The notes beneath the pieces were generated by a model. It ran no database searches. It was not told the DNA's origin and saw only the letters and a list, made by a program, of their open reading frames with translations. Shown here in pieces: positions 4,288 through 24,310 of a stretch of 64,000 nt of DNA. The translations under genes and the position numbers were made by a program. Source of the stretch: Candidatus Bathyarchaeia archaeon (GTDB taxonomy: Archaea > Thermoproteota > Bathyarchaeia > Bathyarchaeales > Bathycorpusculaceae); the NCBI GenBank assembly GCA_049516875.1, contig JBEKSS010000007.1, positions 1 to 64,000 of the forward strand, written 5' to 3'. Numbering within the stretch: position 1 is the stretch's first letter; each line of letters begins with the position of its first letter.

Positions 4288-4974
4288 TCATCTTCTTTCT
4301 ATAACATACAGATCAGTTATGAACTCATGTTGTTTTTTTGTGTGGAAATCGAACATGTACGGGATGACCATGACCATGGAGTAAACGGCCTTCACTTCTC
4401 CACCGTGTTTCTCGACGAACCTTCTGAGAAAGGGGGAAGGGGAGACTTGAACGATGTCATCTCTGTGAGCTCTCAGTTTTCCTGCCAAAGCCGTGTTGTC
4501 TTGCACGTTCTTGTGAAATGAGTAGATGGTTCTGCCTGATTCTAAGGCTTTTTCAAGGAATTTGCGGTCTGCCCCTCGTTTTTGCACTCCGAACGGTGGG
4601 TTTTGCAGCACGGTGTCAAACTCACCGCAGACGGCTTCTATATCCGCCGTGACCCATTGCACTCTGTCTCCTAGCCCTGTGTTCACCGAGTTTTCACAGG
4701 CAGCTTTCACTGCTGTTTTGTCTATGTCCACACCCACGACTTCTTTTGCACCTAGGAAGGCGGCTCCTAATGCCAGTCTTCCAGTGCCGCAGCCCAGGTC
4801 CAGAATGGTTTTGTCCACGATGTCACCGTATGTGTAGGCTGCCATGTACAGCATCTGAGCTGCCACGTTGACGGAAACTGTGTATTGTTCGAGGCTTGGG
4901 CTGGGTGTTGGGTGCGGCTTGACGTTTGAGAGCAGCATCTCCAAATCTAGCTTTCTAGCAAGCCTTTTCTGCAT
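4288..4974 (-). CDS. METTL5-family N6-adenine RNA methyltransferase
   Basis: LEQY, LDLGCGTG, QNPPFG, F.FH.K motifs. Confidence 0.9.
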   Translation of the reverse strand: MQKRLARKLDLEMLLSNVKPHPTPSPSLEQYTVSVNVAAQMLYMAAYTYGDIVDKTILDLGCGTGRLALGAAFLGAKEVVGVDIDKTAVKAACENSVNTGLGDRVQWVTADIEAVCGEFDTVLQNPPFGVQKRGADRKFLEKALESGRTIYSFHKNVQDNTALAGKLRAHRDDIVQVSPSPFLRRFVEKHGGEVKAVYSMVMVIPYMFDFHTKKQHEFITDLYVIERR

Positions 4975-5948
4975 AGTTCTTCCCAGGATAACTTGCCGAT
5001 AACTACCAATGCTTCGTTGACAGTGAGGATCGGTTTTCTGAATCTGGCGGCATCGTCAAGCGATATTCTTGGGCAGGCTGTGTTTACGAAGGCGTCAACC
5101 GATGGAAATTCCATGAGTGTTTCAGGCGTGATTTCCTTCGCGGCGAAAAGATGTGTTGTCTTGCCTTCCTTTTCAAGCTTCTCTTTCAGTTGTAACGCTT
5201 CTTCGAGTCTTTTCTGTCCGGGTTTGAGTCCGATCAGAACGGCGAAGGTCTTCGCTTTTTTTGCTTCTTGCACCTGTGCCCATCTTTGTTTGAGGATTTT
5301 CTCTGCTTCTTTGTTCACAGGGGCTGCTGTGTTGTCGTAGGGATCAGCGATTACTGTCGGCTTCGAAGTTGAAAGGGCTACGCCTAGCGCGTGAAACTGT
5401 CCGCCGCCGACGAAGAGGAAGGCCTCGACGTCCTTCGCGATAGACACGGCGTTGCTGTAGTCGCATCCGATGACTTGGCCTGGATAACTCAGGCGTCCAG
5501 TGTCGCCTATTACGACGATTTTTCCTTGGCGGGTTAGTATCTCTCTGACTTCGTCGAGGGTTTGCACGTGTTGAACTGTTGTCGCTAGGCCTATTCTGCG
5601 CCATTTTTCCAGCATCGGCAACGCTTTTTCGACGGCTGAGGGAACGTTCAAGGTTGCTCGAGCTTCAACGTAAATCGTTGGGAACCGCTCGTACTTCACT
5701 AGTTTAGAGTGGCCGTAGTGAATTATCAGGTCTACTCCAAGGCTTTCGGCGTCTGCTGTTGCCAGGTCACACGCGCCGTAGCAGGGGTCTGCAGAGATTA
5801 TAGGTAGAACTCCGAGCCTTTCAATGGTCTTCGCTATGCGTGGTGCTTCAGGTTTCAGGCCTTCTGGAAATTGGATTAGAACGCGTTTTGCTCCGAGCTT
5901 GAGGATTTCCTGTTTAACTCTTTCTTCTTCAAAATCAAATTGTCTCAT
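4947..5948 (-). CDS. dph2: Diphthamide biosynthesis enzyme Dph2
   Basis: QFPEGL, PCYGACDL, HYGH, GQVIGC, TACPR. Confidence 0.95.
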   Translation of the reverse strand: MRQFDFEEERVKQEILKLGAKRVLIQFPEGLKPEAPRIAKTIERLGVLPIISADPCYGACDLATADAESLGVDLIIHYGHSKLVKYERFPTIYVEARATLNVPSAVEKALPMLEKWRRIGLATTVQHVQTLDEVREILTRQGKIVVIGDTGRLSYPGQVIGCDYSNAVSIAKDVEAFLFVGGGQFHALGVALSTSKPTVIADPYDNTAAPVNKEAEKILKQRWAQVQEAKKAKTFAVLIGLKPGQKRLEEALQLKEKLEKEGKTTHLFAAKEITPETLMEFPSVDAFVNTACPRISLDDAARFRKPILTVNEALVVIGKLSWEELCRKGLLES

Positions 5949-6018
5949 TCTGATTCCTTCGACGGAGATTGCTAAACTAGAAATGTGGGTTTAAGAAGAA
6001 AAATGAATGTGTGTTGTC

Positions 6019-8475
6019 TTACTCTGTCCATTCCCAGTCTTGTTTTGGTTTTCGAATTGGGTGCCCAAGGGCTCTTGCGTCCAGTTCAGCGAGCCGTTCC
6101 ATAATTATCTTCTGTTCTACGCTTGCAACCAGCTTCTTTGTAGCTATTACGGCGTCGTTGTTAACTGAGATGCTGTCGATTCCCACTCTGACCAGGAACT
6201 CTGCGAAGTCCGGCAGGTTTGACGGGCCTTCGCCACATATGGACACTGTGGCTCCGTTCTCGTGAGCGACTCTGATGAGGTGTGCAAGTATCCTTTTGAC
6301 AGCCGGGTCTCTTTCGTCGAAGTATCCCATTAGTCCCAGGCGTTCTGAGTCTCTGTCAATCATGAGTATTCCTTGGGTCATGTCGTTTGAGCCTATGGAG
6401 AATCCGTCTGCAAGCTTCGAGAACTCGTCTGCAAGTATGGCGATTGAGGGTGTTTCAGCCATGAACCACACCTTGAAGTCCTTTGATCTCTCCAAGCCTT
6501 CTTGACGCATGATTTCCAGTACTGCCTTTGTCTCCCACAGGGTACGCACTACCGGAAGCATGACCCAAACGTTTTTCAGGCCCCATTCTGTTCTGCACTT
6601 GACGATGGCTTGGCATTCAAGTCTGAAGGCTTTCTCGTACCATTGGCTTATGTAGCGGCTGCAGCCTCTCCATCCAAGCATCGGGTTGGCTTCTACGATT
6701 TCATATTTTTCTCCGCCTTTGAGTTCTCGGTACTCGTTGGTTTTGAAGTCGCTGAAACGCACGACAACCGGGCGTGGCTGTATGCCTCTGGCGACTGTTG
6801 CTATTCCCTCTGCGAGTTTGTCAACGAACTTTTGGCTTTGTCCTGTCTCGACAAAGTGCATCGGGTGTTCGCCGATATAGCTGGCCAGGATGAATTCGAT
6901 TCGCATCAGTCCTATGCCTTCGAATGGCAGGTCTTTGTACTCCTCGACTTTTTCGGGTACTCCCAGGTTCATGTAAATCTTTGTTGCTGTCGTGGGGACC
7001 GACTGGAACACGCCCGTTGCAATTGCTGCTGAGCCTGCGACTGCTCCGGCGGCGGATGAGAGTTGTTGTGTCAGCGTTTTCATTATTCCTTCGTAGACGA
7101 CGCCGCTTCTTGAGTCCACTGTGTACTGTTTGCCGGTTTTCATGAGTTGCGTGGCGTTTTCTGTTCCGACAACGCATGGTATGCCCAGTTCACGGCTTAC
7201 GATTGCCGCGTGGCACGTTACTCCACCCTTGTCGGTGACTATTGCGCCTGCGAGCTTCATGAAGGGTACGTAATCAGGGTTGGTCATGTCTGTGACGAGC
7301 ACGTCGCCTTTCTGCATGACTTTGGCCGCTTCCTGGGGGTTTGCCACGACTTTCGCCGTGCCAGCTCCGAAGCTTCGTCTGCCAGCAGCGATACCTTTGA
7401 CAACGACTTTCAGTTCTTCAGGTTTTTTCGCTTCTTCTGCTTCGCCTCCTGCTGGCACTTGCTCTAGTTTCGCAGACCAGACTGTTTCAGGCCTTGACTG
7501 CACTATGAATATGTTGCTTGGGTACGGTATGTCCCTGTCTATTGCCCATTCAATGTCTTGGGGTTTTCCGTAGTGCTGTTCGATGCGTTTTGCGAGTTCT
7601 GCAAGTTTGTGAATTTCCTCATCGTTTATACACGGCTGCTCCTGCTTTTCTCGTGGCACGTCCGCGTGCACAGTGTTTCCAGTTTTCGGGTCGCGAATAT
7701 ACTGGACTGTTTTTTTGGCTAGCCGTTTTTCAGTTACCTTTAGCGATTCCTTGTCAACGACGAAGTCGTCCGGCGTGACTGAACCTGACACGACAGCTTC
7801 GCCTAAGCCGTAGTTGCCTTCGATGACTATTTGGCTGGTGTCACCCGTGACGGGGTTCAACGTGAATATGACGCCTGCGGCTCTGGAATTAACCATTTTT
7901 TGAACTCCGACGCTTATGAAGACTTTCTCGTGGGCAAAGCCTTTCTCGTTGCGGTAGAACATGGCGCGTGGTGTGAAGAGACTGGACCAGCACTTCACCG
8001 TGTTAGCGATCACGTCGTCGGCGCCTTTGACGTTTAGAAAGGTTTCCTGCTGTCCTGCGAAGGAGGCGTCTGCCAAGTCTTCGGCTGTTGCGCTTGACCT
8101 AACGGCGACGAAAACGTCTTTCATCTTGAGTTTTTTGCACAATTCTTCGTAGGCTGATTTTATGGCTTTTTCAATGTCTTTGGGCATGCGTGTTGATTCT
8201 ATCAGTTTACGGATTTTCTTGGAGGCTATTTCACCTTGCGCAGGATCGTCCGGCGTGGTCATCGTTTCATTTATGATATCGTAGATCCTTGTTGCTATGC
8301 CTGTGTCTTCGATGAATTTCTTGTAGGAGTAAGCTGTTATTGCGAAGCCAGGTGGAACTGGCAGGCCAGCGCTTGTCATCTCACCCAAGTTGGCGTTCTT
8401 GCCTCCAACTGAAGGAATGTCTGTTTTCCTTAAGCCTTCAAACCAAATCACTAGATCCTTGCGCATTTCACTCAA
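6019..8475 (-). CDS. ppsA: Phosphoenolpyruvate synthase
   Basis: VGGKNANLGEM, SFAGQQET, GGVTCHAAIVSRE, FSIGSND. Confidence 0.97.
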   Translation of the reverse strand: MSEMRKDLVIWFEGLRKTDIPSVGGKNANLGEMTSAGLPVPPGFAITAYSYKKFIEDTGIATRIYDIINETMTTPDDPAQGEIASKKIRKLIESTRMPKDIEKAIKSAYEELCKKLKMKDVFVAVRSSATAEDLADASFAGQQETFLNVKGADDVIANTVKCWSSLFTPRAMFYRNEKGFAHEKVFISVGVQKMVNSRAAGVIFTLNPVTGDTSQIVIEGNYGLGEAVVSGSVTPDDFVVDKESLKVTEKRLAKKTVQYIRDPKTGNTVHADVPREKQEQPCINDEEIHKLAELAKRIEQHYGKPQDIEWAIDRDIPYPSNIFIVQSRPETVWSAKLEQVPAGGEAEEAKKPEELKVVVKGIAAGRRSFGAGTAKVVANPQEAAKVMQKGDVLVTDMTNPDYVPFMKLAGAIVTDKGGVTCHAAIVSRELGIPCVVGTENATQLMKTGKQYTVDSRSGVVYEGIMKTLTQQLSSAAGAVAGSAAIATGVFQSVPTTATKIYMNLGVPEKVEEYKDLPFEGIGLMRIEFILASYIGEHPMHFVETGQSQKFVDKLAEGIATVARGIQPRPVVVRFSDFKTNEYRELKGGEKYEIVEANPMLGWRGCSRYISQWYEKAFRLECQAIVKCRTEWGLKNVWVMLPVVRTLWETKAVLEIMRQEGLERSKDFKVWFMAETPSIAILADEFSKLADGFSIGSNDMTQGILMIDRDSERLGLMGYFDERDPAVKRILAHLIRVAHENGATVSICGEGPSNLPDFAEFLVRVGIDSISVNNDAVIATKKLVASVEQKIIMERLAELDARALGHPIRKPKQDWEWTE

Positions 8476-9019
8476 CCGTCTTCACCTCTTCTGGTGGGAT
8501 TTTCTCAACTGTCTCCGCCTCTTGTGGCGGGAGCTTCTCAACCACTATTCTACATGGCATAGGAAGCTTGGCACCCCCGCGTTTCAGGGACTGCCTAGCA
8601 AGTTCAATCGCGTCGGCGTTAACGCGGACGCGGATGATTGTCTGGCCGGGCCGCACACGAGCAGCAGTTCCGATGGGTGTCCCAAAGGATCTGCGCATGC
8701 CCTGTTGAAGTCGGTCTGCGTGTGCCCCAAAAATCATCTTGTTTTCCTTGAGAATGTTGTGAGGATAGGGGCAGACCTGCAACTGGTAGTTGTTCACGAG
8801 TTTTTCCATCAATTGACGGTTTGCCGCGATGCGTGCCGCTTCCAGGGCGTTGTGGCGGATTTGAGCGCTTTGCAAAGATACGAGTCTTGCTTCGTACTCG
8901 AACTTTGCTTTTGTGTCTCCCATCGTGAATTTTGTTATCTTCGGCTGTGGGAAGCCTCTTATGTATTTCTTCCGGGTGTAAGATTGTCCCTTGACTGGTC
9001 TATAATTCTTTGCGTGCAT
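8468..9019 (-). CDS. rpl10e: 50S ribosomal protein uL16 (L10e)
   Basis: QIRHNALEAARI, ENKM..GAHADRLQQGMRRSFG; likely start MHAKNYR. Confidence 0.95.
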   Translation of the reverse strand: MHAKNYRPVKGQSYTRKKYIRGFPQPKITKFTMGDTKAKFEYEARLVSLQSAQIRHNALEAARIAANRQLMEKLVNNYQLQVCPYPHNILKENKMIFGAHADRLQQGMRRSFGTPIGTAARVRPGQTIIRVRVNADAIELARQSLKRGGAKLPMPCRIVVEKLPPQEAETVEKIPPEEVKTVE

Positions 9020-9315
9020 TTTACATCCCTCTGTGAAAGGCGTGACCGAATATTTAAGCATTAACGGGTTAGGTTGAAGCGTGCGCTAAATACAATTTCC
9101 TGCCTGCTGCCGTCACGTAGTAATCCTTGTATCTTTCAGGGTCAGCGTAACGAGTTTCAGCAGTTAGATGTGACGGAAAGGTGTAAACAGCCTCAGCTCT
9201 CTCACACGCTTCTTTTGCTGCTGGATTGATTCTAGTCTGCTCGCGTAGAATTCGCGAGACCCTTATCCTCATGCATATTCCTCATTTTCGCTAGGTTTGG
9301 ACATGCGTTTCGTTA

Positions 9316-9865: not shown

Positions 9866-10278
9866 GCGCTCTTTTCAGTTCGACCGATTTCACACTCGCA
9901 CGCTCAACTCTCATTACTGGTCATTCCAAAACAAAAAACTTGCTAAATAATGAAACTATCTTAGGATCACGCCGTTGCGCTTTTGATCTTTACCTACACT
10001 TCAATCTCCATGCTCGTGGGATTCTTCTTCAGCTTCATCTTCCTCTTCAATCTCGCCCGCACGCCAAGTTGTACCTCTCGGAGTTCATGCAGAAAATCCA
10101 GAAGAATAGCGTTCACGTGGAACTCTGGTCGGATGCCTTTGAAACATGCCCCATAGGTGATACGTGGTTTTCATGAGGCCTTGCGCGCAGGAGCGTCAAG
10201 GACTTTGTGGTTAAGACTGAATCCGCGCGCGCTCGTGGTGTAGTTTTGGAATAGTCGCCTCAAAACCATTACTCTCAT

Positions 10279-11625
10279 ATGCATAAAACAACAGTATTGA
10301 CGTGTCCAAGGATGTCCATCGCTGATCAGAACACTTTCGTGTTTATTTCAGGGAAGAACTGGAAACTGTCGCTAGCGGAGCTTGTTTCATTCTTAGAAGC
10401 GAGAAACTACAGGTTTGAGGTGTGCGAGTCTACAAAAGCGTTCTTTATCGTTAGCATCGACAAGAGTTTGAGTGCCTCAGCCATTGCTGATCTGGGTGGG
10501 ACCATAAAGATCGGCAGAGTGGCCACAAACGTTGCCACCCAGACGGTGGAAGAAGCTTTTCTTCAAAATGACAAAGAGGCTCAAGCGCAGGTCAAGATGA
10601 GTCTATTGTCAAGCGGTATAGTTGATGAAATGCTCGATACCTCATCTGGGAAATCTGTTTTCGGAGTAAGCGTATACTACACAGAACGGTCTTTCCATCC
10701 AGTTTCCAAAACCATGCAACGCTTTCTCGGAAGCTCTCTAAAACAGGAACTGAGAGCTCACGGCAGAAAATCAGGATTCATGGGCTTTCCTAAAAAAAGG
10801 CAGCAACCGCAACTGAGCCACATCGAGGTGCTAAGAAAAGGTTTAGTCGAAAGAAAAGCGGAAGTATTGTTCTGCATAGGCAAAAAACAAACGGCAATAT
10901 CCACTACTGTGGCCGTGCATAACCCCTTCGAATTCCAAAAACGCGACATAGGCAGACCAATCCAGCGTAAGATCTTTGCCATACCGCCACGTCTGGCAAG
11001 AATCATGATAAACCTGGCTTCCTGCACATCTGGAAAATTTCTGCTCGACCCATTCTGCGGAGTCGGCACAATCCTCCAGGAAGCACTCTTGGCCAGAGCA
11101 AAAGTGATCGGCATGGACCTGAACCCGTGGTGCGTCACAGCTTCTAGAGAAAACCTCGGCTGGCTCAAAAGAGAATACGCGCTAGAAGAAGCAGAATACA
11201 CGGTTCTGCAAGGAAACTCACGCAGGCTAACGAACAGGATTCAACAAGAAGTAGACTGCATAGCAACGGAACCCGATCTAGGTCCAGCACTGCGCCACAT
11301 TCCTACCACAGCCTACGCGACAAAAATCATTGACAAGCTTGAACCTTTGTACCATGATTTCTTAGAAGAGGCACACAGAATACTGAAAAAAGGGGGACGA
11401 TTGGTGCTCGTAACACCCTACGTCAAAACACGCTCAGGAAAACCAGTTACCCTGGACATTGAAGAGAAGGCCATGACCGTCGGCTTCAAACGAGTTTATC
11501 CATTTCAAGGAGAGTTCTTTGCCGGAAACAGTATTGCACACGAGAATCTGACCAGAATGGCATTTTTCGTTGATGTGGGAGAAAAGCACAAGATCGGACG
11601 AGAAATACACATTTTCCAGAAATAG
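10279..11625 (+). CDS. Trm11/TrmG10-like tRNA methyltransferase
   Basis: IPPRLARIMINL, LLDPFCGVGTIL; start uncertain. Confidence 0.75.
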   Translation: MHKTTVLTCPRMSIADQNTFVFISGKNWKLSLAELVSFLEARNYRFEVCESTKAFFIVSIDKSLSASAIADLGGTIKIGRVATNVATQTVEEAFLQNDKEAQAQVKMSLLSSGIVDEMLDTSSGKSVFGVSVYYTERSFHPVSKTMQRFLGSSLKQELRAHGRKSGFMGFPKKRQQPQLSHIEVLRKGLVERKAEVLFCIGKKQTAISTTVAVHNPFEFQKRDIGRPIQRKIFAIPPRLARIMINLASCTSGKFLLDPFCGVGTILQEALLARAKVIGMDLNPWCVTASRENLGWLKREYALEEAEYTVLQGNSRRLTNRIQQEVDCIATEPDLGPALRHIPTTAYATKIIDKLEPLYHDFLEEAHRILKKGGRLVLVTPYVKTRSGKPVTLDIEEKAMTVGFKRVYPFQGEFFAGNSIAHENLTRMAFFVDVGEKHKIGREIHIFQK

Positions 11626-11755
11626 GAAGAGAACGTCAAGCATGCATGTCATTCAGTTTGTTCAGTACGTGAAATATGGTGAGCGTGCGCTATAGCAGAC
11701 TTTCAACGCCATGCACGAAAGTGAATAGACCTGTTTTTGAGTTTAGCGCGCTTTG

Positions 11756-12720
11756 CTATAGAGGATATGCTCCACATGTTTGGCAATAAGTAGCGTTTTC
11801 AGGAATGTTAGAGTTGCATTGAGGACATATCTTACCTTCCATGTTGGTTGGATGAGGGACGCCTATCAATGATCTATAAACCTCATAATAGAACAGTTGC
11901 TCCTTATCGCGAATTGTAACTCTATCTTCAGCGAGGTATCTTCTTCTCTTTTCATCGAACTCTGTATCAGAAATCTTCCTGTTAAAGAGGTTTGGAAGCG
12001 TGGTGGTTCCGAGCCATACTCGATAGGAGTCTTAACTCTCCAAGCGATCTCTCTAGGCAAGATATTCTCAAAGGCCTTGTGTAGTATCCATTTACCGTAT
12101 GTTCGTCCGTTTTCTGTTTGAATCTTGTATTGCGAATCTAGTTTCATGGCAAAATCTTTGAAAGCCGGATCGAGGTAGGGAAGCTTAGCCTCTATCTCGA
12201 GAGCCTTAGCAAGTAGGATAGATGAGAACGCCATTACGTTCCACATTTTCTTCAATTCCAAGTCCAGTTTTTCCCCTTCTAACCCGAAGAGGAAACTGTA
12301 TCCGGCTAAGATTTCATCGCTTCCATCACCTGTCATAATAGTGGATACGCCATTTTCTTTAGCTGCCTTTAAGCCTACATAAATCGTCACACTATTACGT
12401 ATCTCCATCGGGTCGAAAGACTTCATCGTCTTCACAACCATAGGGATACCATCATACAACTCGTCTTCGTTAAAGACGTGAATGATATGCTTAAGCCCTA
12501 ATTTACTGGCCATTAAAACAGCATATTCAACATCTGGTGCTGGCGCGTTCTGGAAAGCAACAGTAATTGCCTTTAATGAAATAAACTTTGATGCGATAAC
12601 TGCTAAAATGCTTGTGTCCAAACCGCCAGATAAGAGAATGCCCTCAGCCAGATTATTTTTTACAGCTTTCTCCAGTAAAATTCGAAGTTTAGAGCAAACT
12701 TCGTCAACATCGCTTAGCAT
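11756..12720 (-). pseudogene. Asparagine-synthase-like protein with C-terminal Zn ribbon, frameshifted near 12010
   Basis: LLSGGLDTS, TGDGSDE, LPYLD; other frame continues GTTTLP...RDKEQLFYY...CPQC..YCQTCGAYPL*. Confidence 0.8.
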
Positions 12721-12930
12721 ACTAATCCCTCCCAAATCTTTTCCAAATCTAGTTTATTAGAACGTTAACTTTCATCGAAATCATTAGCCGATACTTCTAA
12801 GCTGATTCCATCCTCTAAAAGTCGCCTTACTTCATACTTATCTCTTGCCAATCTTTTTCCCCCTGTGCGCATCCAACTTGGATATTTTGGCGGTCTTGGC
12901 GGTCTTGGAGGTCGCATTCGATTAGCGCGC

Positions 12931-13094
12931 ATGGTCGTTCCTAAATTGGCTAAAAATGGTTTTTTATTCTTCTTTTGGGGTTTGGGAACGCTGTTGAACC
13001 TCGCGCAGGTTCATCTCTTCTCTGTAGCAGCCAGTCTGTCTGGAATTCAAGAGACGGAATTAAAACCATTTTTGACTATTTTCGGAACAGGCAT
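12931..13094. mobile_element. MITE related to IS at 36811-37900
   Basis: Imperfect terminal inverted repeats (25/33), flanked by GCGCGC and GCGC; ends match 37950-37996. Confidence 0.7.
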
Positions 13095-13211
13095 GCGCAC
13101 TTGAATCCGAACCGAATAGTCACCGTCTACGAGTTTAAGGTCTTGGGAATAGGAGTATATCAAAATTACTATATCCTTTTACCTATTAGATAGTCTAGAA
13201 GGTAATACCCT

Positions 13212-13535
13212 CTAATACCAATCATAGAGATGGGACAAGCAATCCGAGCAAAGATTTCCTTCAAAGAGTTCAGATACTTGTCTGCCACAACCCATGCAAA
13301 TCTTCTTTGGTTCTTCTGTTGTTATCGTTATGTTCAGCATTACTTGACTCAATGCAGAATAGATTTCCTTGACCTCTTTGACTTCTTTTCCATCCTCTGA
13401 AAGCACAAGAAGAACTCCTTCAAAGTTCTTGAAAAAGAGATGATGGTAATCTTTGTTCAATTTCTGTCTTTCAGAATTGTCCAGTTCCAAGATGTCGTGA
13501 AGAGTATGATTAGCCGAGCACAACAAGCATTTCAT
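13212..13535 (-). CDS. Hypothetical protein with CxxC motifs
   Basis: CLLC, CMGC, CSDC. Confidence 0.55.
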   Translation of the reverse strand: MKCLLCSANHTLHDILELDNSERQKLNKDYHHLFFKNFEGVLLVLSEDGKEVKEVKEIYSALSQVMLNITITTEEPKKICMGCGRQVSELFEGNLCSDCLSHLYDWY

Positions 13536-13577
13536 TGTAGATACATCTCCAACACTTCTTTGTCTGTTAATTCTTTA

Positions 13578-13620
13578 GGGTACTGTTAACTTCTCATGGG
13601 ATTGTCTGACGTGTTAACTG
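13578..13620 (+). mobile_element. Solo IS6-like end
   Basis: GGGTACTGTTAAC, same as 2872 motif, with a subterminal GTTAAC; no partner end seen. Confidence 0.45.
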
Positions 13621-13640
13621 TCGTGGGATGACGTAAGCTA

Positions 13641-14174
13641 TTATAACGTCTTTATGATTTTCTCCCTTATGTAAACCTCTAACTCTGTCGACTTGTCATA
13701 GTCGTCTCTTGTGGTCTCAATTTCTTTATGGGGTGTTATCCGTTTCATCAAGGCATTTTTCTGTTCCAGATTTTTAGCATTCTTTTTCTTTAAATATATA
13801 ACAAAAACATTGTATCTTCCTTTGAGTGTCTCTATGGGTCTAAGAATGCAGTCTTCGTTAAGTTTTTCTCTGTCGGCTTCACTAACACTCATAGTAAATG
13901 GAATAATCAAAATGTACCTTTGCCCATTAGCTTTCTTGTCGCATTCATCTGTTCTTTTCTCTATGTCTTTGTTGACACCGTCAACATCGCAAAAACAATT
14001 CACTATTTCGTGTGGTGAACGAGAACTTACCGCATAGACTCTGTTATCATCAAGCATTCTTTCAAAAAAATGACGACCATTATTCGTGGTAGAGGATTTA
14101 TCTTTAAAAAAGCGCTTTATGGTGGTTGTTTTACCTGAACTATTTCCACCACAAAGAATTACAATTACATTCAT
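13641..14174 (-). CDS. P-loop-containing hypothetical protein
   Basis: VIVILCGGNSSGKTT Walker A. Confidence 0.65.
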   Translation of the reverse strand: MNVIVILCGGNSSGKTTTIKRFFKDKSSTTNNGRHFFERMLDDNRVYAVSSRSPHEIVNCFCDVDGVNKDIEKRTDECDKKANGQRYILIIPFTMSVSEADREKLNEDCILRPIETLKGRYNVFVIYLKKKNAKNLEQKNALMKRITPHKEIETTRDDYDKSTELEVYIREKIIKTL

Positions 14175-14237
14175 ATTTGGTCTGTACGTAATTCAGAGTA
14201 CAAAGAACTTAAGTTTTTCTCAACTTTTTCGCGCGCG

Positions 14238-14319
14238 ACGACTAAACGTAAGGGAAAAAGGACGAACATTCCTGCAGCACTACCGCATCTGCAACGAACT
14301 CGCCCTGTTAACAAGCTAG
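14238..14319 (+). pseudogene. C-terminal fragment of winged-helix regulator
   Basis: REKGRTFLQHY resembles the T.KG..FL..Y wing/helix of archaeal wHTH proteins; begins at a GC tract. Confidence 0.4.
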
Positions 14320-14348
14320 GATTGAAACACAACACAGCCGCGCGCGCG

Positions 14349-14624
14349 GAGCCAAACCTACGGGGGAAGAGCACAAGACGGCGCATACTCCGTAATCCAA
14401 ACCAGCGACGGAGGCTACGCGCTAGCGGGGTACACGAACTCTTTCGGCGCTGGCAGCTATGACTTCTGGTTAGTTAAGACAGACTCTTCTGGAAGCATGC
14501 TGTGGAACCAGACTTACGGAGGTTCAGGGGACGATGAAGCTGGATGCGTGATTCAGACGAGCAACGGCTACGCCCTAGCCGGGCTCACAAACTCTACTGG
14601 AGCAGGTAGCGACGATTTCTGGCT
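14349..14624 (+). pseudogene. Internal fragment of beta-propeller repeat surface protein
   Basis: SVIQTSDGGYALAGYTNSFGAGSYDFWLVKTDSSGSMLWNQTYGG, about two repeats; no N- or C-terminus; bounded by GC tracts. Confidence 0.8.
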
Positions 14625-14633
14625 GCGCGCGCG

Positions 14634-14778
14634 TAAACAATACGTTAATGTCAAGATTCCCGTTGAACTTGCAGATGAGGTCGACAAGATTCTTGATAAG
14701 AAGCTTCTGGGATACCGCAGTCGAGGGGAGTTTGTGGCAGAGGCGGTCAGGGACAAACTCATTCAAGTCAAGAAGTAG
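14634..14778 (+). pseudogene. RHH protein lacking its own start, fused in frame to propeller fragment
   Basis: KQYVNVKIPVELADEVDKIL...GYRSRGEFVAEAVRDKL. Confidence 0.75.
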
Positions 14779-14996
14779 TTTTTCTTCTTTATCAAAACGG
14801 TTCTAGTATCTCGAAAGCAGTGGCATTTGATACCGCATCATTGTGGTTTCTCTGAGAAGGTGAGTGTTATATTCCACCTCATCGAACTAATGCAAAACGC
14901 ACCCGCTTTTCTGTCTATTATCGCCGCTGCGTTACAGTAGCGTGCATGTGTGTTGATAAAATCAGTTCTTAAGGCAGGAGAAGGCCTCTCGGGAAT

Positions 14997-15587
14997 ATGC
15001 CGTGTGGCATAATCAGCCGTTCCTTTGTTGAGGAAACAACGTTGAAAAAGTATTGCCACGGAGAATTTCTTAGGATTTGGCAAAATGCTGAAGCATTAGG
15101 CTACAAGCGTTACAGATGGTCAATTGCAAAACACAAGCATGGAGAAACGGACCCAACACTTATGCTAGGATGGTTGCCAAATTTCCATTGGATTAGCAAA
15201 CAAACCTTGGACGCTCAAAGACGAATTTACTCAAACGACCAATGGCTTGTTGAGGTCTTAGGTGGTATTTCCCTCAAAAGCGGTCTTGTAGCGCGCCCGC
15301 TGATTTTGGGCATGGCAAACGAGAAAGAAAAGACATTTTCAGCTAGGTTCAGAACAGAAGACAAGATTACAGTTTTCCATCAACTGAAAGCCTTGGATAT
15401 AGACGAAGCTATTGAAGTTAGTAAGAAATTAGCTGAAGAAAAGAACTGGAAAGTCATAAGCGTTAGAGAATTTAGTGCCAAAAAATCAGAGGAACAGAGA
15501 GAACCTAAATGGAGTCTTAGCGCGCGCGCAAACGGCCCCCACTTCTTACAGGAAACCTATACGATCATTCCGGTTGGATGTGTCTAG
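14997..15587 (+). CDS. Hypothetical protein, C-terminus probably chimeric at GC tract 15520
   Basis: 196-aa ORF reading LSARA through (GC)5. Confidence 0.5.
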   Translation: MPCGIISRSFVEETTLKKYCHGEFLRIWQNAEALGYKRYRWSIAKHKHGETDPTLMLGWLPNFHWISKQTLDAQRRIYSNDQWLVEVLGGISLKSGLVARPLILGMANEKEKTFSARFRTEDKITVFHQLKALDIDEAIEVSKKLAEEKNWKVISVREFSAKKSEEQREPKWSLSARANGPHFLQETYTIIPVGCV

Positions 15588-15608
15588 CGCGTTACTTGGT
15601 TCAGGATT

Positions 15609-16130
15609 TTATGGGAGTAACCGTTTGTTTTTTAGCCATGTTTTTGCCAGTTCGTCGTAGTTTGGGAAGACTTTCTTCAAGATTGGGATGTACATCTGCA
15701 TTTCTTCTTCCGAGAGGTATTGGAATTGGAATTCTCCCGTGTAGGGCGAGGGTTGTCCTTCTCTTGTCACAAATTCTACGTGCATGAACGGGTCTCCTCG
15801 TTTGATTGTGATGGGTCGGCGGTCGTTGCTCAGGTTTACAAGTTCCAAGGCGAGTCTCCCGACGAATCCACTGTGGACTTTTGCAGCGTTCAGGAACGAG
15901 AGTCCCATTCTGCCGTACTTGCTCTTTGCGGTTAAGTGGGCAACGTTGTCTGGTAGTGTGAAGACGATTTCGTGGGTAACCAGGTTCTTGTGTTCCAAGT
16001 AGTGGAGGGTTGTTTCCTCTCTGACTGTTAGTATGTAGCCGTCGCCGTCGAGCAGGTTGTAGTCGTTCGGGTATACGCACTTGTAATTGTCAATGAGTTC
16101 TTTCAGCTTGTCTTTGCCTAGGATACACAT
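15609..16130 (-). CDS. dcd: dCTP deaminase / dUTPase-family protein
   Basis: AKSKYGRMGL, VHSGFVGRLALELVN, Y.G.FQ.Q. Confidence 0.75.
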   Translation of the reverse strand: MCILGKDKLKELIDNYKCVYPNDYNLLDGDGYILTVREETTLHYLEHKNLVTHEIVFTLPDNVAHLTAKSKYGRMGLSFLNAAKVHSGFVGRLALELVNLSNDRRPITIKRGDPFMHVEFVTREGQPSPYTGEFQFQYLSEEEMQMYIPILKKVFPNYDELAKTWLKNKRLLP

Positions 16131-16353
16131 GTGCTAAAAACCTCGCTGTTTTCTAGCAGTACTAAACCTTTGAAGTTATATAGTTTTTCACGTCTTCGTG
16201 CGGGCGTGAGTAGAGGTTGGCGGAACTACTTGGTTTTTATAGTCAGTGGTATCGTTGCGCCTGTGAGCCAGGCAAACGGGTGAGGTTCTAAGCCTCTGTT
16301 GGTTCCAAGTCGGGATAAAGACAGAATTCAGGATTCTGGTAGGGGGTATGCAG

Positions 16354-16710
16354 CTACGTTTCAAGCGCGTGTTCAAACTTGCTTCTCAACAGTTCTGAAG
16401 TTAATTCTCCTTCGATTCGATGTTGGCCAATTATTGCCGCTGGTGTTTTTGTTATTCCTCTCAGACTGGCCTTCAGTCTTCCCTTAAGGGTTGAAACATC
16501 GTATATCTCGACCTTGATGTTTTTTCCTTTGCAAAACTCGCCTAAGACTTCCAACATGTGCAGGTCGGCTTCTGGCAATGAGTTTTCATATTCTGTGACT
16601 TGTTTGGACAGGCAATAATGGTTAATGACGCCATCGGAGACTGGTGGGGTGGTATACTGTCGGACTATGGTTCTTTTTCTTCTGACATAAGCCTCAATCT
16701 TGTTAACCAT
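16354..16710 (-). CDS. Hypothetical protein with thioredoxin-like C-terminus
   Basis: IYDVS...GITKTPAAIIG. Confidence 0.55.
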   Translation of the reverse strand: MVNKIEAYVRRKRTIVRQYTTPPVSDGVINHYCLSKQVTEYENSLPEADLHMLEVLGEFCKGKNIKVEIYDVSTLKGRLKASLRGITKTPAAIIGQHRIEGELTSELLRSKFEHALET

Positions 16711-16808
16711 GGGGCTTCACCGTTCTATTATGCACCGAAAGGACATTTAAGATTGCTGCACATTCATATCTGGCATCTTGGTCGCGCGCTAAAATGGAGG
16801 AGTAACAC

Positions 16809-17408
16809 ATGCGTTGCAAATACGATGAGAAAGACGCCGTTTACACGTGCGGTGTTTGTGGCAGACTGCTTTGCGCAGAGCATGCGAAGTTAAGAACCGT
16901 GTGCCCTTCTCATGTGAAGAAGGCAGAACTGGCCTACACTATTCGTAAGGTAACGAGTAAAGAGGAAAGGTCGATTATTCAAAAGCTTGTTAAGAGATTT
17001 TGGGGAGAGGAGGAACAGCTGACTCTTGACAGAAAATTTGTTGTTACGGAACTGCCGGCTTATGTTGCCAAAGTGGAAAATAGCATAGTCGGATTTGTTT
17101 CGATTGAAGAGACAGGCGATGCCGTCATAGTTGTTGCTCTGGGCGTTCTGCCACGATATCAACGCTCTGGAGTTGGCAGCAGATTGATTGAAAAAGTTGA
17201 AAGTGAAGCGAGAAGATTGCGAAAAAGGAAGGTGCTCGTTTCAACTTCAAACGACGATCTACCCGCGTTGGCCTTTTATCAGTCGCTTGATTTCCAGATT
17301 TACGAAGTGAAACCCGATGTTGTGGCCCAAAAACACGGCGCCGTCCTGCGGGGAATAGGCGGACTGCCAATTAGAGACGAACTTAGATTACAGAGAATAC
17401 TCAATTGA
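16809..17408 (+). CDS. GNAT acetyltransferase with N-terminal Zn finger
   Basis: CGVCGRLLCAEH; VLPRYQRSGVGSRL; TSNDDLPALAFYQ. Confidence 0.85.
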   Translation: MRCKYDEKDAVYTCGVCGRLLCAEHAKLRTVCPSHVKKAELAYTIRKVTSKEERSIIQKLVKRFWGEEEQLTLDRKFVVTELPAYVAKVENSIVGFVSIEETGDAVIVVALGVLPRYQRSGVGSRLIEKVESEARRLRKRKVLVSTSNDDLPALAFYQSLDFQIYEVKPDVVAQKHGAVLRGIGGLPIRDELRLQRILN

Positions 17409-17543
17409 CCTTCTCTGAGCAGTTAAGCAACAGCCTAACGCGCGCGTTAAATCTCTTCTTGGACCAAAAACGATTGCAATGCAGTTTTTGCGCGGAAATC
17501 GCTCGGACCGTGAGCGTTAATTACGTGAACGTAGCCAAGCATC

Positions 17544-18044
17544 TTGAAGCGTCTTCCTCGGTGGTTGCCAGTCGTGAGTGTCAGGAGAGCTGATCTGAAA
17601 GATGTCGAATCGGTTCTGTCTGTCATTAACGCAAGCGTAAGGGACGCTTATGGAAGCATTATCCCGCCAGAGCAGTTTAAGGATCCAGTTTTGACGTTAG
17701 AGCAGCTTGTGAAAGAGTTTAGATCTATGACTTTTTACACTTACAAGCTTGAAGACAAGCTCATAGGCGTTGCCGCGCTGCGAATCGCTGGACACGAGAC
17801 TGGAATGGTGAGGTGGGTTCACGTTCTTCCTCAGTATAGGCAGAAAGGAGTCGGTACCTCTCTGATGAAGCACATCGAACGAGAGGCCAAAAAGATGAGG
17901 CTAAAGAAACTTGAAGCCGTCTATGTTTGGGAAAAAGCGTGGTGGGCCAGAAACTTCTACACAAAGTTAGGTTACAGGAAAGGAAGTATGTTCACTTTGC
18001 CATGGGGAGACCGAGCATACATCTACGAGAAGACTCTTTCCTGA
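17544..18044 (+). CDS. GNAT acetyltransferase
   Basis: VLPQYRQKGVGTSL, FYTKLGY. Confidence 0.85.
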   Translation: MKRLPRWLPVVSVRRADLKDVESVLSVINASVRDAYGSIIPPEQFKDPVLTLEQLVKEFRSMTFYTYKLEDKLIGVAALRIAGHETGMVRWVHVLPQYRQKGVGTSLMKHIEREAKKMRLKKLEAVYVWEKAWWARNFYTKLGYRKGSMFTLPWGDRAYIYEKTLS

Positions 18045-18151
18045 GGGTTCGAATCTTGGGTCCTTCGATTGTGCCCAAGAATTGTTGCTGGCGATGTCTC
18101 CACTCTCTCGCGTAGGAAATTCGTTGCGTCCAAGCCGAACAGCGCGCGCTA

Positions 18152-18810
18152 TTAGTAAATAATTTGGATTAGGTTATAGGGGAAGAGGAGAAGGATAAGC
18201 CCGATGAGAAAAGCTATGGCAACCGTAAATACCGTTTCTGGGATTCTGGAAGGGCATTTTATTGGAAAGATGAAGGGAACCTTTTGTCTGTATCGCTGGA
18301 AGCTTTCTCCAAACCGCTTTAGCAGATGTACTTCTTCATATCGTGCTATGCCAATATAGCCCAGAATCTGTAAGAGCCACAAACTGTGAGCTCTACACTG
18401 TTTCCCCCTAACGTCAGAGTCATTACCGTTAACCCCACAGTGAGAATGATTATTCCTGCAAACTGAGGATGTCTGACGATGGAATATGCTCCAGTCTCGA
18501 TGAGTCCTATCCCTCTCCTGCGATTCAAGAGCAGCTGCACAGCTCCAGCTGCAAGCACAACGATTCCAATAAGAGCGATTATGCGACCGACGATGAAATA
18601 CTTAGAAAAGAACATTACAGCGATTTCCCGCTCGACGTTTGCGTCTCCCCCAGTAAGGTAGACTAGATAGGGTAATAGTGGAATGGTCATGACACTGATG
18701 GCCCAACCAGCATTAAGTATGGTCTGTGTGCTGAACAATATGCCTGCAAACGCTATCTCGAATAGGTGTCGGATTTTTCCCTTAAGCGTTGAACCGCTCA
18801 TGTCACTCAT
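18152..18810 (-). pseudogene. ICMT/PEMT-family membrane methyltransferase, frameshifted near 18385
   Basis: LIETGAYSIVRHPQF in one frame; EEVHLLKRFGESFQRYRQKVP in the next. Confidence 0.75.
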
Positions 18811-19018
18811 AGAAAGAATGACCTATTCTTGTATATAATTCTGAGCCCCAAAGCGCGCGCACATTGTCGGTCCATATCCTAGCGCGCGCGGCGTTCGTCT
18901 TAGAACGGAAGCGAAACGCAAGAACACAATAAGCCCGCCATCCTTCGCATTTTGCACCCAGCGCGCGCTTGATATCCGAAAGAGAGTCCCAATATTACGA
19001 TTCAAACCGCACATTTAT

Positions 19019-19343
19019 CTAATTTCTTTGCCAGAAATGCTTCTTCTTGGCTTGTTCCTGCTGTTTAGACGCGATGGGTTCTTCGCGCTGTGTCGGTTCG
19101 TTCGCCTTTTCTTTCTTAACCTCGATTTCTTCACTGACCTCTTTGACGGCTTCTCTCACAGCCCTCAGCTTTATCTCTTTTATTAGGCTCACACCTTTAC
19201 CCATGATTACGCCACCCGCATATATTCTTCGGAATAGCAGAACCGCCTCTGAAAAGAATCGAGATGCCAAAATAGGGGGGAATAATCACAACTATAAGTC
19301 CAATTGCCAGCAATGCATATCCGACAATTTTGTGAGACTCCAT
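19019..19343 (-). pseudogene. Small membrane protein, frame-disrupted
   Basis: MESHKIVGYALLAIGL..GISILF then YAGGVIMGKGVSLIKE in a different frame. Confidence 0.45.
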
Positions 19344-19627
19344 ATTAAAATCCCCCGCTTGATATGCACTGATTAGTTCACTTGTGTTGATTAGTTTTAT
19401 GGACTATTAATATACATTATGAATACAGCGCGCTAACCGTCTTATCCATACACCAAGCGCGCGATGGGCGAATTCAATATTAGCAGGGCAAAAGCCAAGA
19501 TCAACATCTTGGACCAAGAGGAGCTTTTCAACGCACTTGGATTATGTTTTGTTAGATAGGAGCCTCGCATCTCAAACCAGTCCGGGATCGTTTGAAGTCT
19601 CTTTAGTTCGCTAACTCCATCAAAGCT

Positions 19628-20353
19628 TCATTCTTCAGCAAAGACTCTCAAGGAGTCTATTTCCCATGCTTGAAGGTACAGATCTTGTCTGAAAATTCCC
19701 CCAGCAAACTCTCTTTTCAGTTGTTCTACTACTCTCAGGTTCAAGTGCTCAGGTACTTCCCATTGACTTGAGGAGGTTCTTTGCTGCAAGTTGATGAGAC
19801 GATCGTCTGCGAAGATATCATAAGAAGTAACAAACAAAGACTTCGTGGGAGTGATTAGATCTTTCAGGTCTTGTTCTGATTTCCCAAGATAACGTCGTTC
19901 ATATCCATATTGTTTCAACATGCGATAGTACGCCTCGCGAACAGGGTCTTTACGTGCGTCGTATAAAGAAAACATGGCATGCCGAGTTACTCGGCACACT
20001 TCTCTCAGAGTTTTTTTCCATTCACTTATCAAATGAAGAACATGAACGCTAATCGCAACATCAAAAGTCTTGTTTTTGAATGGAATGAACCGGGCGTCTG
20101 CAAGAAGCAGGTCTTGCAGGCCTTTTTCTTTCGCCTTGCTCATCATTCTCCTGCTAATGTCAATTCCAACAACTTCAAACCCCGTTTTTTGCAGAGGTTC
20201 AGCAAGTCTTCCAGTGCCGACGCCGACATCCAAGATTTTCGTGCAATCCTTGAGTTCAAAGGATAACGTCTTGATGAGGCTTTTCATGACTTCATTTGGC
20301 AATCTTCTAGTCGCGTCATAGATTTCTGCGACACGATCGAACGATACGCTAAA
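19628..20353 (-). CDS. Class I SAM-dependent methyltransferase
   Basis: SFDRVAEIYDATR, ILDVGVGTG; no canonical start codon before SFDR. Confidence 0.85.
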   Translation of the reverse strand, partial: FSVSFDRVAEIYDATRRLPNEVMKSLIKTLSFELKDCTKILDVGVGTGRLAEPLQKTGFEVVGIDISRRMMSKAKEKGLQDLLLADARFIPFKNKTFDVAISVHVLHLISEWKKTLREVCRVTRHAMFSLYDARKDPVREAYYRMLKQYGYERRYLGKSEQDLKDLITPTKSLFVTSYDIFADDRLINLQQRTSSSQWEVPEHLNLRVVEQLKREFAGGIFRQDLYLQAWEIDSLRVFAEE

Positions 20354-24225: not shown

Positions 24226-24310
24226 TGCGCACGGGTTCTTTCATCAGCAGTCTGAAGACCACATGTCGACAGACTTAGCGCGCGCTCGCTCTCTTCTAAC
24301 TGTGATGTTG

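Follow-up and report, generated by a model that had tools for sequence, protein, structure and literature searches.

Remnants of three unrelated genes joined at short alternating GC tracts in a Bathyarchaeia genome

Anatomy of the locus

How do pieces of three unrelated genes come to lie end to end, each abutting a short alternating GC tract? We addressed this question for a locus at positions 14230–14778 of a 64,000-nt stretch (hereafter the window; contig JBEKSS010000007.1, assembly GCA_049516875.1) from the 2.43-Mb genome of a peat-dwelling Candidatus Bathyarchaeia archaeon, named G000 here. The original prediction, made from the sequence alone, was that a winged-helix-like fragment, an internal β-propeller fragment, and a ribbon-helix-helix (RHH) domain without its start are stitched together at (GC)n tracts into an in-frame chimera, and that such tracts are created at, or carried into, junctions rather than being terminators. 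The observation held, with two corrections given below. The features of the locus and its surroundings are as follows.

11743–11751: left copy of the direct repeat TTAGCGCGC (6-nt tract at 11746–11751), at the left edge of a strain-specific insert.
11752–15516: 3.77-kb insert absent from a 97%-identical strain, holding an asparagine-synthase remnant, a MITE, a zinc-ribbon ORF, a P-loop ORF, the three fragments, and ORF196.
12922–13103: MITE of about 180 bp; the family ends read TA followed by GCGCGCATGC on the left and GCATGCGCGC followed by TA on the right, the right end of this copy being degenerate (12 of 48 high-scoring segment pairs are 150 nt or longer).
14230–14237: tract 1, CGCGCGCG, between the upstream region of the P-loop ORF and the winged-helix remnant.
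14238–14319, plus strand: 3′ remnant of a small winged-helix gene (about 27 codons plus stop), followed by 19 nt of its 3′ flank up to tract 2.
14339–14348: tract 2, CGCGCGCGCG.
14349–14624, plus strand: internal piece (1.8 repeats) of a β-propeller gene.
14625–14633: tract 3, GCGCGCGCG, read as RAR in the chimeric frame.
14635–14778, plus strand: CopG/RHH gene lacking its first 4–5 codons and its promoter region, with its own stop.
14497–14778, plus strand: 93-aa open frame running from an ATG inside the propeller piece through tract 3 into the RHH.
14997–15587, plus strand: ORF196, of no known family, which runs across the right-hand tract, so that its last 20 or so codons are native intergenic DNA of the neighboring locus.
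15517–15529: right copy of TTAGCGCGC, extended to a 10-nt tract (15520–15529), at the right edge of the insert.

The heptamer GCGCGCG occurs 48 times in the window against 6.1 expected from shuffles, and none of 100 shuffles reached 48. G000 holds only nine triples of tracts of 8 nt or more within 404 nt, and under a uniform Poisson model the chance of three or more in one such window is 5e-5. The three pieces lie in one reading frame, in which every tract reads RAR. However, contrary to the original prediction, only the propeller and RHH pieces form a continuous frame, since the winged-helix remnant ends in its own stop and two stops separate it from the propeller piece.

Each piece could be traced to intact relatives. 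The winged-helix piece has a 90% DNA match to positions 25320–25367 of contig C4 of the sister genome G004, where full-length relatives end in TEKGRLFLQHYRACNELLPN followed by the stop. The propeller piece is 81% identical over 281 nt to C14:35866–36146 of G000, which lies inside a seven-repeat secreted propeller gene that carries no tract; the alignment stops at 14348 and 14625, within 1 nt of both tracts, and matches in all four sister genomes stop at the same two points. The left cut of the propeller falls at a blade boundary, between W and SQTYGG, and only the right cut, after DFWL, is mid-blade, which also corrects the original account. The third piece matches the Pfam profile RHH_1 over positions 2–38 of 39 with an E-value of 0.0019 and 18.6 bits, below the 20.5-bit cut-off. 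In a protein search, 102 proteins scored E ≤ 0.001, one of them the ORF of the window itself, and many are named CopG/Arc/MetJ by their source. The 13 relatives whose sequences were read are near-identical over the RHH part, and the shortest of them (51–55 aa) begin M.LPK(R/Q)YVNVKIP, so that the window copy lacks only the first 4–5 codons and the promoter region. Intact relatives of all three pieces have ordinary sequence where the tracts stand.

The existence of full-length natural propeller-RHH homologs had been set beforehand as one of two conditions that would overturn the chimera; no natural fusion was found apart from identical copies of this ORF (one identical protein, P0001, seen on eight contigs), and a search among longer proteins also found none, although this is weak evidence. 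Logan contigs from run X2, which comes from another sample and study, cover 10000–14421 and 14392–15906 without a difference, and low-depth contigs of run X5 cover 13047–14394 and 14430–15567, so that contigs of two other samples, though not raw reads, bridge all three joints. No RNA run holds the stretch, and nothing shows that the predicted 93-aa chimera is made or used.

The surrounding insert is polymorphic. Contigs of X5, X7, and X8 skip 3774 nt, and the 97%-identical strain, represented by 20.5 kb (L100) of an 851-kb metagenome record, reads gagtTTAGCGCGCGCGCaaac here: a single, hybrid tract stands at the site, and the joint of 11742 to 15517 has nine letters that fit both sides. The strain comparison rests on these 20.5 kb and on the contigs from the sequencing runs. 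Only residues 170–197 of ORF196 match L100, and no other relatives of it were found in the DNA examined. No Rfam family matched 11500–20000 at E up to 0.1.

GC tracts across the genome and the order

G000, which is 97% complete, contains 416 tracts of 8 nt or more, many of them A-(GC)4-T. Against a first-order expectation, 240 versus 27 were counted at 8 nt, 112 versus 6.3 at 9 nt, 56 versus 1.5 at 10 nt, and only 8 were longer. GCGCGCGC occurs 212 times, 98 of them with A..T flanks, and CGCGCGCG 28 times. The tracts are solitary: 2152 of 2242 tract flanks have no look-alike, which rules out a longer repeat around the tract, and no conservation extends beyond ±2 nt. They are clustered, as 94 of 232 10-kb bins hold none and 27 hold five or more, and they concentrate in variable, strain-specific DNA. 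Three quarters (312) are intergenic, and they lie in divergent (82 of 438), convergent (74 of 399), and tandem (156 of 1176) intergenic regions alike. Since none of the three tracts of the locus scores as a terminator-like site either, the terminator reading was rejected.

Several comparisons link the tracts to junctions, and the interpretation that they are created at or carried into joints is supported by every test that could be run. Ends of duplicated DNA within the genome fall within 2 nt of a tract 45 times of 3093, against 4 of 3093 for random positions. Tract-bearing intergenic regions are collinear with sister genome G002 in 15 of 105 mapped cases, against 476 of 888 for tract-less ones, and in 8 of 64 against 199 of 435 when gap-matched, although only 67% of G002 was compared and the gene calls were crude. 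Of 64 short inter-tract segments that have a DNA homolog, 8 end at both tracts, 31 at one, 18 lie inside, and 7 run through. By our reading of the segment ends, 10 of 21 assessable ends of segments shared with G002 at 94% identity or more lie within about 10 nt of a tract. Tract positions are not conserved between sister species, even beside conserved genes.

Tracts also stand where intact relatives or the ancestral order have none. A Cas1 3′ fragment begins at tract C1:358264–72 of G000, an integrase 3′ fragment begins at tract C1:230907–14, and a 70-nt 3′ gene end lies between two tracts at 18891–18960 of the window. An inversion in G004 of the block of core genes at 4287–9066 is bounded by tracts in G004 only, whereas G000, which keeps the order seen in other Bathyarchaeia, has none there. 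At otherwise collinear sites, a tract replaces 5–7 nt in two G002 cases and is inserted with a TA(A) duplication in one G000 case. These three empty sites do not hold AGCGCT, which argues against fill-in of such sites as the source of A(GC)4T.

Other cases are consistent with re-use of existing tracts. Besides the 3.77-kb indel flanked by TTAGCGCGC, a cassette is swapped between the same two tracts (18861–19456), and a 5.9-kb insert in L100 sits directly against tract 10224–32. Four tract-delimited segments of G002:C4:1–2406 map at 91–97% identity to four different G000 contigs. The tracts also decay quickly: one-transition variants of AGCGCGCGCT number 78 against 16.5 expected, transversion variants 46 against 31, and L100 reads CGCGCGTG where G000 has tract 17439.

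Tract-rich genomes are scattered over the order, as 9 of 151 genomes, in at least six genera, have 10 or more AGCGCGCGCT. The MITE is matched in all four sister genomes of the genus and, outside the genus, in 5 of 8 tract-rich genomes and 0 of 11 tract-poor ones. G000 encodes side by side, in locus L278:3883–6943 on the minus strand, a LigD polymerase domain (LigD_Prim-Pol, PF21686, 2.7e-82), Ku (PF02735, 2.3e-40), and an ATP-dependent ligase-phosphoesterase (PF01068, PF04679, and PF13298). The LigD polymerase domain is found in 6 of 9 tract-rich genomes and 24 of 142 tract-poor ones. Related genomes are not independent, so that these co-occurrence counts overstate the support. The operon is neither necessary nor sufficient, as G047 (100% complete), G140, and G033 are tract-rich without the LigD polymerase domain, 24 tract-poor genomes have it, and Ku was not found in the genomes G003 (93% complete, 129 TAGCGCGCGC) and G001.

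The search for an enzyme tied none to the tracts. G000 has no match to the IS630-type DDE_3 transposase (PF13358), to a Y1/RAYT transposase (PF01797), or to an integron integrase at cut-off, and no RVT_1 reverse transcriptase was found in any of 21 genomes. TnpB is not linked to the genus, Cas1 is not correlated with the tracts, the Prim-Pol family PF09250 is found in 3 of 21 genomes and not in G000, and the multi-copy protein families of G000 showed no obvious transposase. Literature searches on the word GCGCGCGC in archaea, on palindromes and mobile genetic elements in Bathyarchaeia, and on casposons in Bathyarchaeia, judged from listings and the beginnings of abstracts, returned nothing on such tracts.

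A proposed break-and-join model for the tracts

We favor the view that the 549 bases are a dead patchwork of three gene remnants, inside an insert that is itself lodged in a GC tract, and that the 93-aa frame is most likely an accident of joining. In this model, when DNA ends are joined in this lineage, a short self-complementary (GC)3–5 joint would be laid down between them, whether the ends come from one break, from two breaks, or from a loose fragment. All such joints being identical palindromes, any two could later recombine in either orientation, giving deletions, insertions of circles, inversions, and cassette swaps. Repetition would build arrays of genes and gene scraps separated by tracts, which then decay by point mutation. 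The activity would spread patchily between lineages, linked to the MITE family with GCGCGC ends and, more loosely, to the Ku/LigD-polymerase/ligase operon.

The anatomy of the locus, the association of tracts with junctions, the strain polymorphism, the sharing of cassettes, the decay, and the co-occurrences are demonstrated by the data, whereas the writing of new tracts at joints, any part of the end-joining operon in making them, and the recombination of tracts with each other are inferred. We are accordingly confident that tracts mark joints of the flexible genome and that this locus is junk built that way, but hold de novo synthesis at the joints only tentatively, as somewhat less likely than not; the model as a whole appears about as likely as not. 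Direct evidence for de novo writing rests on three small collinear events, one inversion, and a handful of gene fragments, and at about 80% identity between species many boundaries cannot be placed to the base. The 3.77-kb indel and the cassette swap fit plain recombination between existing tracts equally well, and the A..T flank preference is unexpected if tracts are written at arbitrary ends. As in filler, N-type, or templated insertions at end-joining junctions, such as those of Ku-LigD joining in bacteria and a few archaea, extra bases stand exactly at joints between ends that were not neighbors, and small replacements occur at collinear sites. Such fillers, however, are short and variable, whereas here the insert is one fixed self-complementary word, (GC)4 with minor (GC)3 and (GC)5, present in hundreds of copies per genome and apparently re-used for later recombination; a fixed (GC)4 filler is not a known product of Ku-LigD joining.

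Competing explanations and significance

The best surviving alternative, though an unlikely one, is conservative, integron-like recombination, in which a recombinase crosses over inside GCGCGCGC, circular cassettes each carrying one tract integrate at genomic tracts, gene scraps arise from crossovers at secondary sites, and tracts are never written anew. It would account for the indel flanked by tract repeats with a single hybrid tract in the empty allele, for the cassette swap between two conserved tracts, and for cassettes of small genes that are shared between species in different contexts and orders and bounded by tracts in both. Tyrosine recombinases are plentiful, with 10 matches in G000, several close to tracts. 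However, the best match to the integron integrase profile TIGR02249 in G000 scores 39.3 bits against a cut-off of 265, and the integrase family found next to tracts is present in 19 of 21 genomes, tract-poor ones included. The site is a perfect 8–10-nt palindrome without conserved arms, too short for known tyrosine or serine recombinases, whereas attC sites are imperfect palindromes of 57–141 nt with conserved core sites. Moreover, genes lie in both orientations, many units are gene scraps, and the arrays are scattered over the genome rather than standing beside one platform. Crossover at a secondary site would leave a half tract, but the propeller, Cas1, and integrase fragments carry full tracts, and tracts stand at inversion ends where the ancestral order has none.

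Slightly less likely are transposon footprints, in which a cut-and-paste family represented by the MITE leaves its terminal GCGCGC on the donor flanks. Two such ends would anneal with 2, 4, or 6 nt of overlap to give tracts of 10, 8, or 6 nt, and joining ends from different excisions would give rearrangements and captured segments, much as TA-duplicating Tc1/mariner and IS630 elements leave palindromic scars. MITE ends read TA followed by GCGCGC both in G000 and in distant genera, the MITE co-occurs with tract richness, and the predicted even lengths, G-first phase, and cap at 10 nt are all observed. The A(−1)/T(+1) preference points the same way as a TA duplication, and an end-joining operon is present to seal excision gaps. 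On the other hand, TA stands on both sides of only 27 of 416 tracts, on one side of 141, and on neither side of 248, and none of the three tracts of the locus has TA or A..T flanks. There are about 14 full MITEs against about 400 tracts, and the tract-rich G140, G033, and G130 have no MITE match. An autonomous partner, which would be a longer element bounded by TAGCGCGCATGC..., was not found, as only pairs of ends about 180 nt apart exist in G000 and no transposase lies beside a lone MITE end in genome G113. No IS630-type transposase was found in G000 either, although insertion sequences are often missing from metagenome-assembled genomes. No site with a MITE in one genome and a tract in the other was seen between G000 and G002, where 0 of 18 MITE sites had a collinear counterpart with which they could be compared.

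A passive marker, that is, an intergenic protein-binding, processing, or packaging signal of a pool of plasmids or viruses that is rich in tracts when integrated and whose boundaries fall between genes, where tracts happen to lie, is improbable. The clustering, the concentration in strain-specific DNA, the mostly intergenic position, and the patchy distribution would fit, but homology ends within 1–2 nt of tracts inside the propeller, Cas1, and integrase genes, tracts bound an inversion of core genes, and their positions are neither conserved nor long-lived. As with REP/BIME elements, a short lineage-specific palindrome is present in hundreds of mostly extragenic copies, yet G000 has no RAYT gene, the tract has no conserved head or stem-loop, and it coincides with rearrangement joints and cuts genes, which REPs as a rule do not.

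Integration of loose DNA pieces by a casposase or Cas1 at a palindromic mini-repeat, duplicated as in CRISPR spacer uptake, is very unlikely. Divergent Cas1 genes and fragments occur in several copies in the genus (one full copy and three fragments in G000, four and two in G004), one Cas1 gene sits in an element of about 4 kb with about 80-nt inverted ends inside the 5.9-kb insert of L100, and pieces are flanked by tracts on both sides. However, the tract-rich G002 (97% complete, 166 TAGCGCGCGC) and G001 have no Cas1 match, neighboring tracts show no duplication beyond the tract in excess of random pairs, and the Cas1 fragments are themselves cut by tracts. CRISPR arrays likewise intersperse short palindromic repeats with captured foreign or own DNA, but their repeats are 23–50 nt at regular spacing with spacers of uniform length, a leader, and cas genes, whereas the tracts are 8–10 nt, lack a leader, and are spaced from 21 nt to kilobases. 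Finally, chimeric assembly at GC-rich runs can be all but dismissed, even though this is a metagenome-assembled genome in which some contig ends overlap across a tract, since independent assemblies of other samples bridge all three joints without a difference, the same tracts stand at the same places in a different strain from another data set, and the motif is specific to certain lineages within the same kinds of samples.

A bolder reading, possible but doubtful, is that some Bathyarchaeia carry a horizontally spreading DNA-writing activity that lays a fixed self-complementary (GC)4 linker on or between DNA ends, so that any two ends, including loose gene fragments, can be joined and every joint becomes a universal, orientation-free recombination site. 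This would be a new way of capturing and shuffling genes, building cassette arrays without an integron integrase or attC sites.

If the tracts are written at joints, they are a readable record of every break-and-join event in these genomes and would point to an unknown enzyme activity that makes a defined alternating GC word. How gene cassettes are first formed is an old question for integrons, and here the cassette boundaries are so simple that the step could be reconstituted and tested. Even on the cautious reading, the tracts provide a practical marker for the flexible genome of a widespread, uncultured group of peat and sediment archaea, and warn that open frames running across tracts, such as the 93-aa one described here, are probably chimeric junk.

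The chimeric locus and its strain-specific insert

The stretch carries three alternating GC tracts, located at the following positions of the window:

14230-14237, first tract
14339-14348, second tract
14625-14633, third tract

In one reading frame it reads F-RAR-RLNVREKGRTFLQHYRICNELALLTS followed by a stop, then D and a stop, then NTTQP-RAR-SQTYGG...DFWL-RAR-KQYVNVKIP...KK and a final stop. The first fragment is the 3' end of a small winged-helix gene: a 48-nt core matches contig C4 of the sister genome G004 at 90%, and the full-length G004 proteins end in ...TEKGRLFLQHYRACNELLPN and a stop. The second fragment is 81% identical in DNA to positions 35866-36146 of contig C14 of the genome under study (G000), a stretch that lies inside an intact secreted protein with seven QTYGG...DFWLVKTD repeats and no tract. 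This alignment ends at 14348 and 14625, and the matches in all four sister genomes end at the same two points. The third fragment is a CopG/RHH gene. In a protein search 102 proteins scored E <= 0.001, one of them the window's own ORF; the 13 relatives that we inspected are close over the RHH part and the shortest of them (51-55 aa) begin M.LPK(R/Q)YVNVKIP. The copy found here therefore lacks its first 4-5 codons and its conserved upstream region.

Only identical copies of the 93-aa propeller-RHH chimera exist in the protein collection, and a search among proteins of 164-2000 aa found no fusion, although this is weak evidence. Contigs of run X2, from another sample and study, bridge all three joints with 0 differences, and low-depth contigs of run X5 bridge them too, these being contigs and not reads. 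The observation of the original prediction, that three unrelated gene fragments are joined at GC tracts with the propeller and RHH pieces in frame, is real and is not an assembly artefact.

Contigs of runs X5, X7 and X8, as well as the metagenome locus L100, which is about 97% identical to G000, lack 11743-15516. Nine letters, TTAGCGCGC, fit both sides of that joint, and the empty allele reads gagtTTAGCGCGCGCGCaaac. The whole chimeric stretch therefore lies in a 3.77-kb strain-specific insert lodged in a tract. The rest of the insert is also debris, with two orphan ORFs, a further ORF that runs across the right-hand tract into native intergenic DNA, and two features:

11866-12735 (minus strand), an asparagine-synthase remnant whose best Pfam stretch, one of two, covers profile positions 1-138 of 354, and whose frame degenerates at its end
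12922-13103, a MITE of the family described below

Between 7.7 and 26.8 kb, G000 and L100 differ at five places. Four have a tract at a boundary (a 5.9-kb insert in L100 directly after tract 10224-32, the 3.77-kb insert, and a swap of 593 nt for 485 nt between the same two tracts), while the fifth has a tract 16 nt away. Other features of this part of the window are:

16210-16788, an orphan 118-aa ORF (minus strand) inserted between the dCTP-deaminase-like gene and the GNAT gene relative to the sister genomes G001-G003, with a tract standing exactly where homology resumes
18152-18810 (minus strand), a membrane methyltransferase-like gene split into 154-aa and 76-aa frames; contigs of X5, X7, X8 and part of X2 carry an extra C behind 18383, so that G000 has a frameshift or a base-calling error there
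24301-24335, a sequence resembling the 3' end of a tRNA gene (minus strand, ending ...GGTTCGAGTCCCACTCCCGGCGCCA), in which ARAGORN calls no full tRNA and which is the right boundary of a 787-nt against 192-nt strain difference

The 5.9-kb insert of L100 contains an element of about 4 kb (L100:13359-17383) with about 80-nt inverted ends, 49 nt of which are perfect, that encodes a divergent Cas1 (PF01867, 1.2e-46). Cas1 copies are also found in G000, at C9:118082-119107 and as three fragments. No polymerase was recognized among the five ORFs of the L100 element that were scanned, and its ends and multiple copies make it look like a small casposon. A full-text literature search on casposons in Bathyarchaeia returned no paper with either term in its title or abstract.

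Genome-wide distribution of the tracts and their link with junctions

The G000 genome is 2.43 Mb long with 47% G+C and holds 416 alternating GC runs of 8 nt or more, whereas runs of 6 nt are at expectation.

Table. Alternating GC runs in G000, observed against first-order expectation.
Length; observed; expected
8 nt; 240; 27
9 nt; 112; 6.3
10 nt; 56; 1.5
longer; 8; not given

The unit is (GC)4: GCGCGCGC occurs 212 times and CGCGCGCG 28 times, and the numbers of 9-mers and of C-first 10-mers are, as calculated from these counts, about what chance C or G flanks on a (GC)4 core would give. A precedes and T follows in 98 of the 212. The A(GC)nT counts for n = 2 to 6 are 431, 82, 98, 21 and 1, while those of T(GC)nA are 523, 30, 6, 4 and 0. 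The flanks are otherwise unique, as 2152 of 2242 are singletons. With crude gene calls, 312 of 416 tracts lie in the 19% of the genome that is intergenic, and all intergenic types are represented. Six pairs of G000 contig ends overlap by exactly 122 nt, for example C7 3' with C8 5', where the overlap holds a GC tract, so that the assembly could probably be joined further.

The ends of intragenomic BLAST matches fall within 2 nt of a tract 45 times of 3093, against 4 of 3093 for random positions, and in most such cases the other copy has no tract at that point. When G000 is compared with the 67% of the sister genome G002 that was retrieved, both flanks of a tract map collinearly for 26 of 206 tracts with at least one flank mapped, against 441 of 621 random positions, and the reciprocal comparison gives 31 of 197 against 663 of 908. 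With an intergenic control, again dependent on crude gene calls, the figures are 15 of 105 with a tract and 476 of 888 without; matched for gap length, they are 8 of 64 and 199 of 435. Of 162 short inter-tract segments, 64 have a DNA homolog, of which 8 end at both tracts (the propeller piece among them), 31 end at one, 18 lie inside and 7 run through. In comparisons between species, boundaries at about 80% identity are fuzzy. A Cas1 fragment, an integrase fragment and a 70-nt 3' gene end are cut by tracts in the same way. In G004, the block 4287-9066 is inverted and bounded by tracts, whereas G000 keeps the order seen in other Bathyarchaeia loci and has no tract at either point. In addition, a few collinear sites show a tract replacing 5-7 nt, or inserted with a TA(A) duplication.

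Tract-delimited segments are also shared between species. Four consecutive segments of G002:C4:1-2406 match four different G000 contigs at 91-97% identity, while conserved genes in the syntenic region are about 79-90% identical between the two species. Most of these segments, which carry small genes, have tracts at their ends in G000 too. By our reading of the alignment ends, 10 of 21 assessable ends of segments shared with G002 at 94% identity or more lie within about 10 nt of a tract, five in both genomes and five in one only.

The tracts undergo turnover. One-transition variants of AGCGCGCGCT number 78 against 16.5 expected and transversion variants 46 against 31, while the perfect word numbers 98 against 1.9. 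L100 has CGCGCGTG where G000 has tract 17439, and bases at the edge of tract 16783 differ between the two strains.

Patchy occurrence and candidate machinery

The nearest named records are Bathyarchaeia genomes assembled from metagenomes. TAGCGCGCGC occurs 188 times in G000 and 48-231 times in the four sister genomes, but 0-3 times in 16 genomes of other genera of the family and order. In an even sample of 151 genomes of the order, 9 have 10 or more AGCGCGCGCT; they lie in at least six genera of four families, and within one genus two members are rich and one is poor. The trait is therefore patchy, as expected of something mobile. Related genomes are not independent, so that the co-occurrence counts that follow overstate the support.

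A MITE family of about 180 bp, with roughly 50-nt inverted ends that begin TA/GCGCGCATGC and about 14 full copies in G000, matches in 5 of 8 tract-rich genomes outside the genus and in 0 of 11 tract-poor genomes. It also matches in all four sister genomes, though only weakly in G003, and has the same ends in two other genera. No autonomous partner was found. A second repeated motif of about 45 nt (...ACGGTTTTTCCCATCATTTTGTAACAA...) directly abuts a tract, perfect or degenerate, in all 5 copies found (G000:C1:510338-510391, C2:223809-223835 and C7:194823-194848; L100:12128-12200 and 6801-6827) and is probably the end of a second mobile element family.

G000 encodes a complete end-joining operon at C9:90883-93943 (L278:3883-6943 in the extracted locus, minus strand), with a LigD polymerase domain, Ku and a ligase-phosphoesterase fusion side by side, in a block bounded by tracts. 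The polymerase domain is present in 30 of the 151 sampled genomes, 6 of 9 tract-rich and 24 of 142 tract-poor ones, and is neither necessary nor sufficient. IntI, RAYT and IS630 transposase were not found in G000, and reverse transcriptase was not found in any of 21 genomes, while Cas1, TnpB and tyrosine integrases do not track the trait.

Interpretation of the tracts

The original prediction held that tracts are created at, or carried into, junctions rather than being terminators, and our comparisons support this reading. The association of tracts with junctions rests directly on the data, whereas their writing at the joints and their recombination with each other are inferred. We favor a two-step model, in which a (GC)3-5 joint would be written where ends are joined and tracts would then recombine with each other. 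Indeed, full tracts stand at fragment ends and inversion ends where intact relatives and the ancestral order have none, and tracts appear at a few collinear sites. The model leaves unexplained the A..T flank preference, the link with the MITE and the identity of the writer. A recombinase model explains the indel and the swap but not tracts at new places. A transposon footprint model explains the MITE link, the even lengths, the G-first phase and the cap at 10 nt, but fails on the flanks, since TA stands on both sides of only 27 of 416 tracts. The safe conclusion is that the tracts mark joints of the flexible genome and that this locus is a decayed product of repeated joining.
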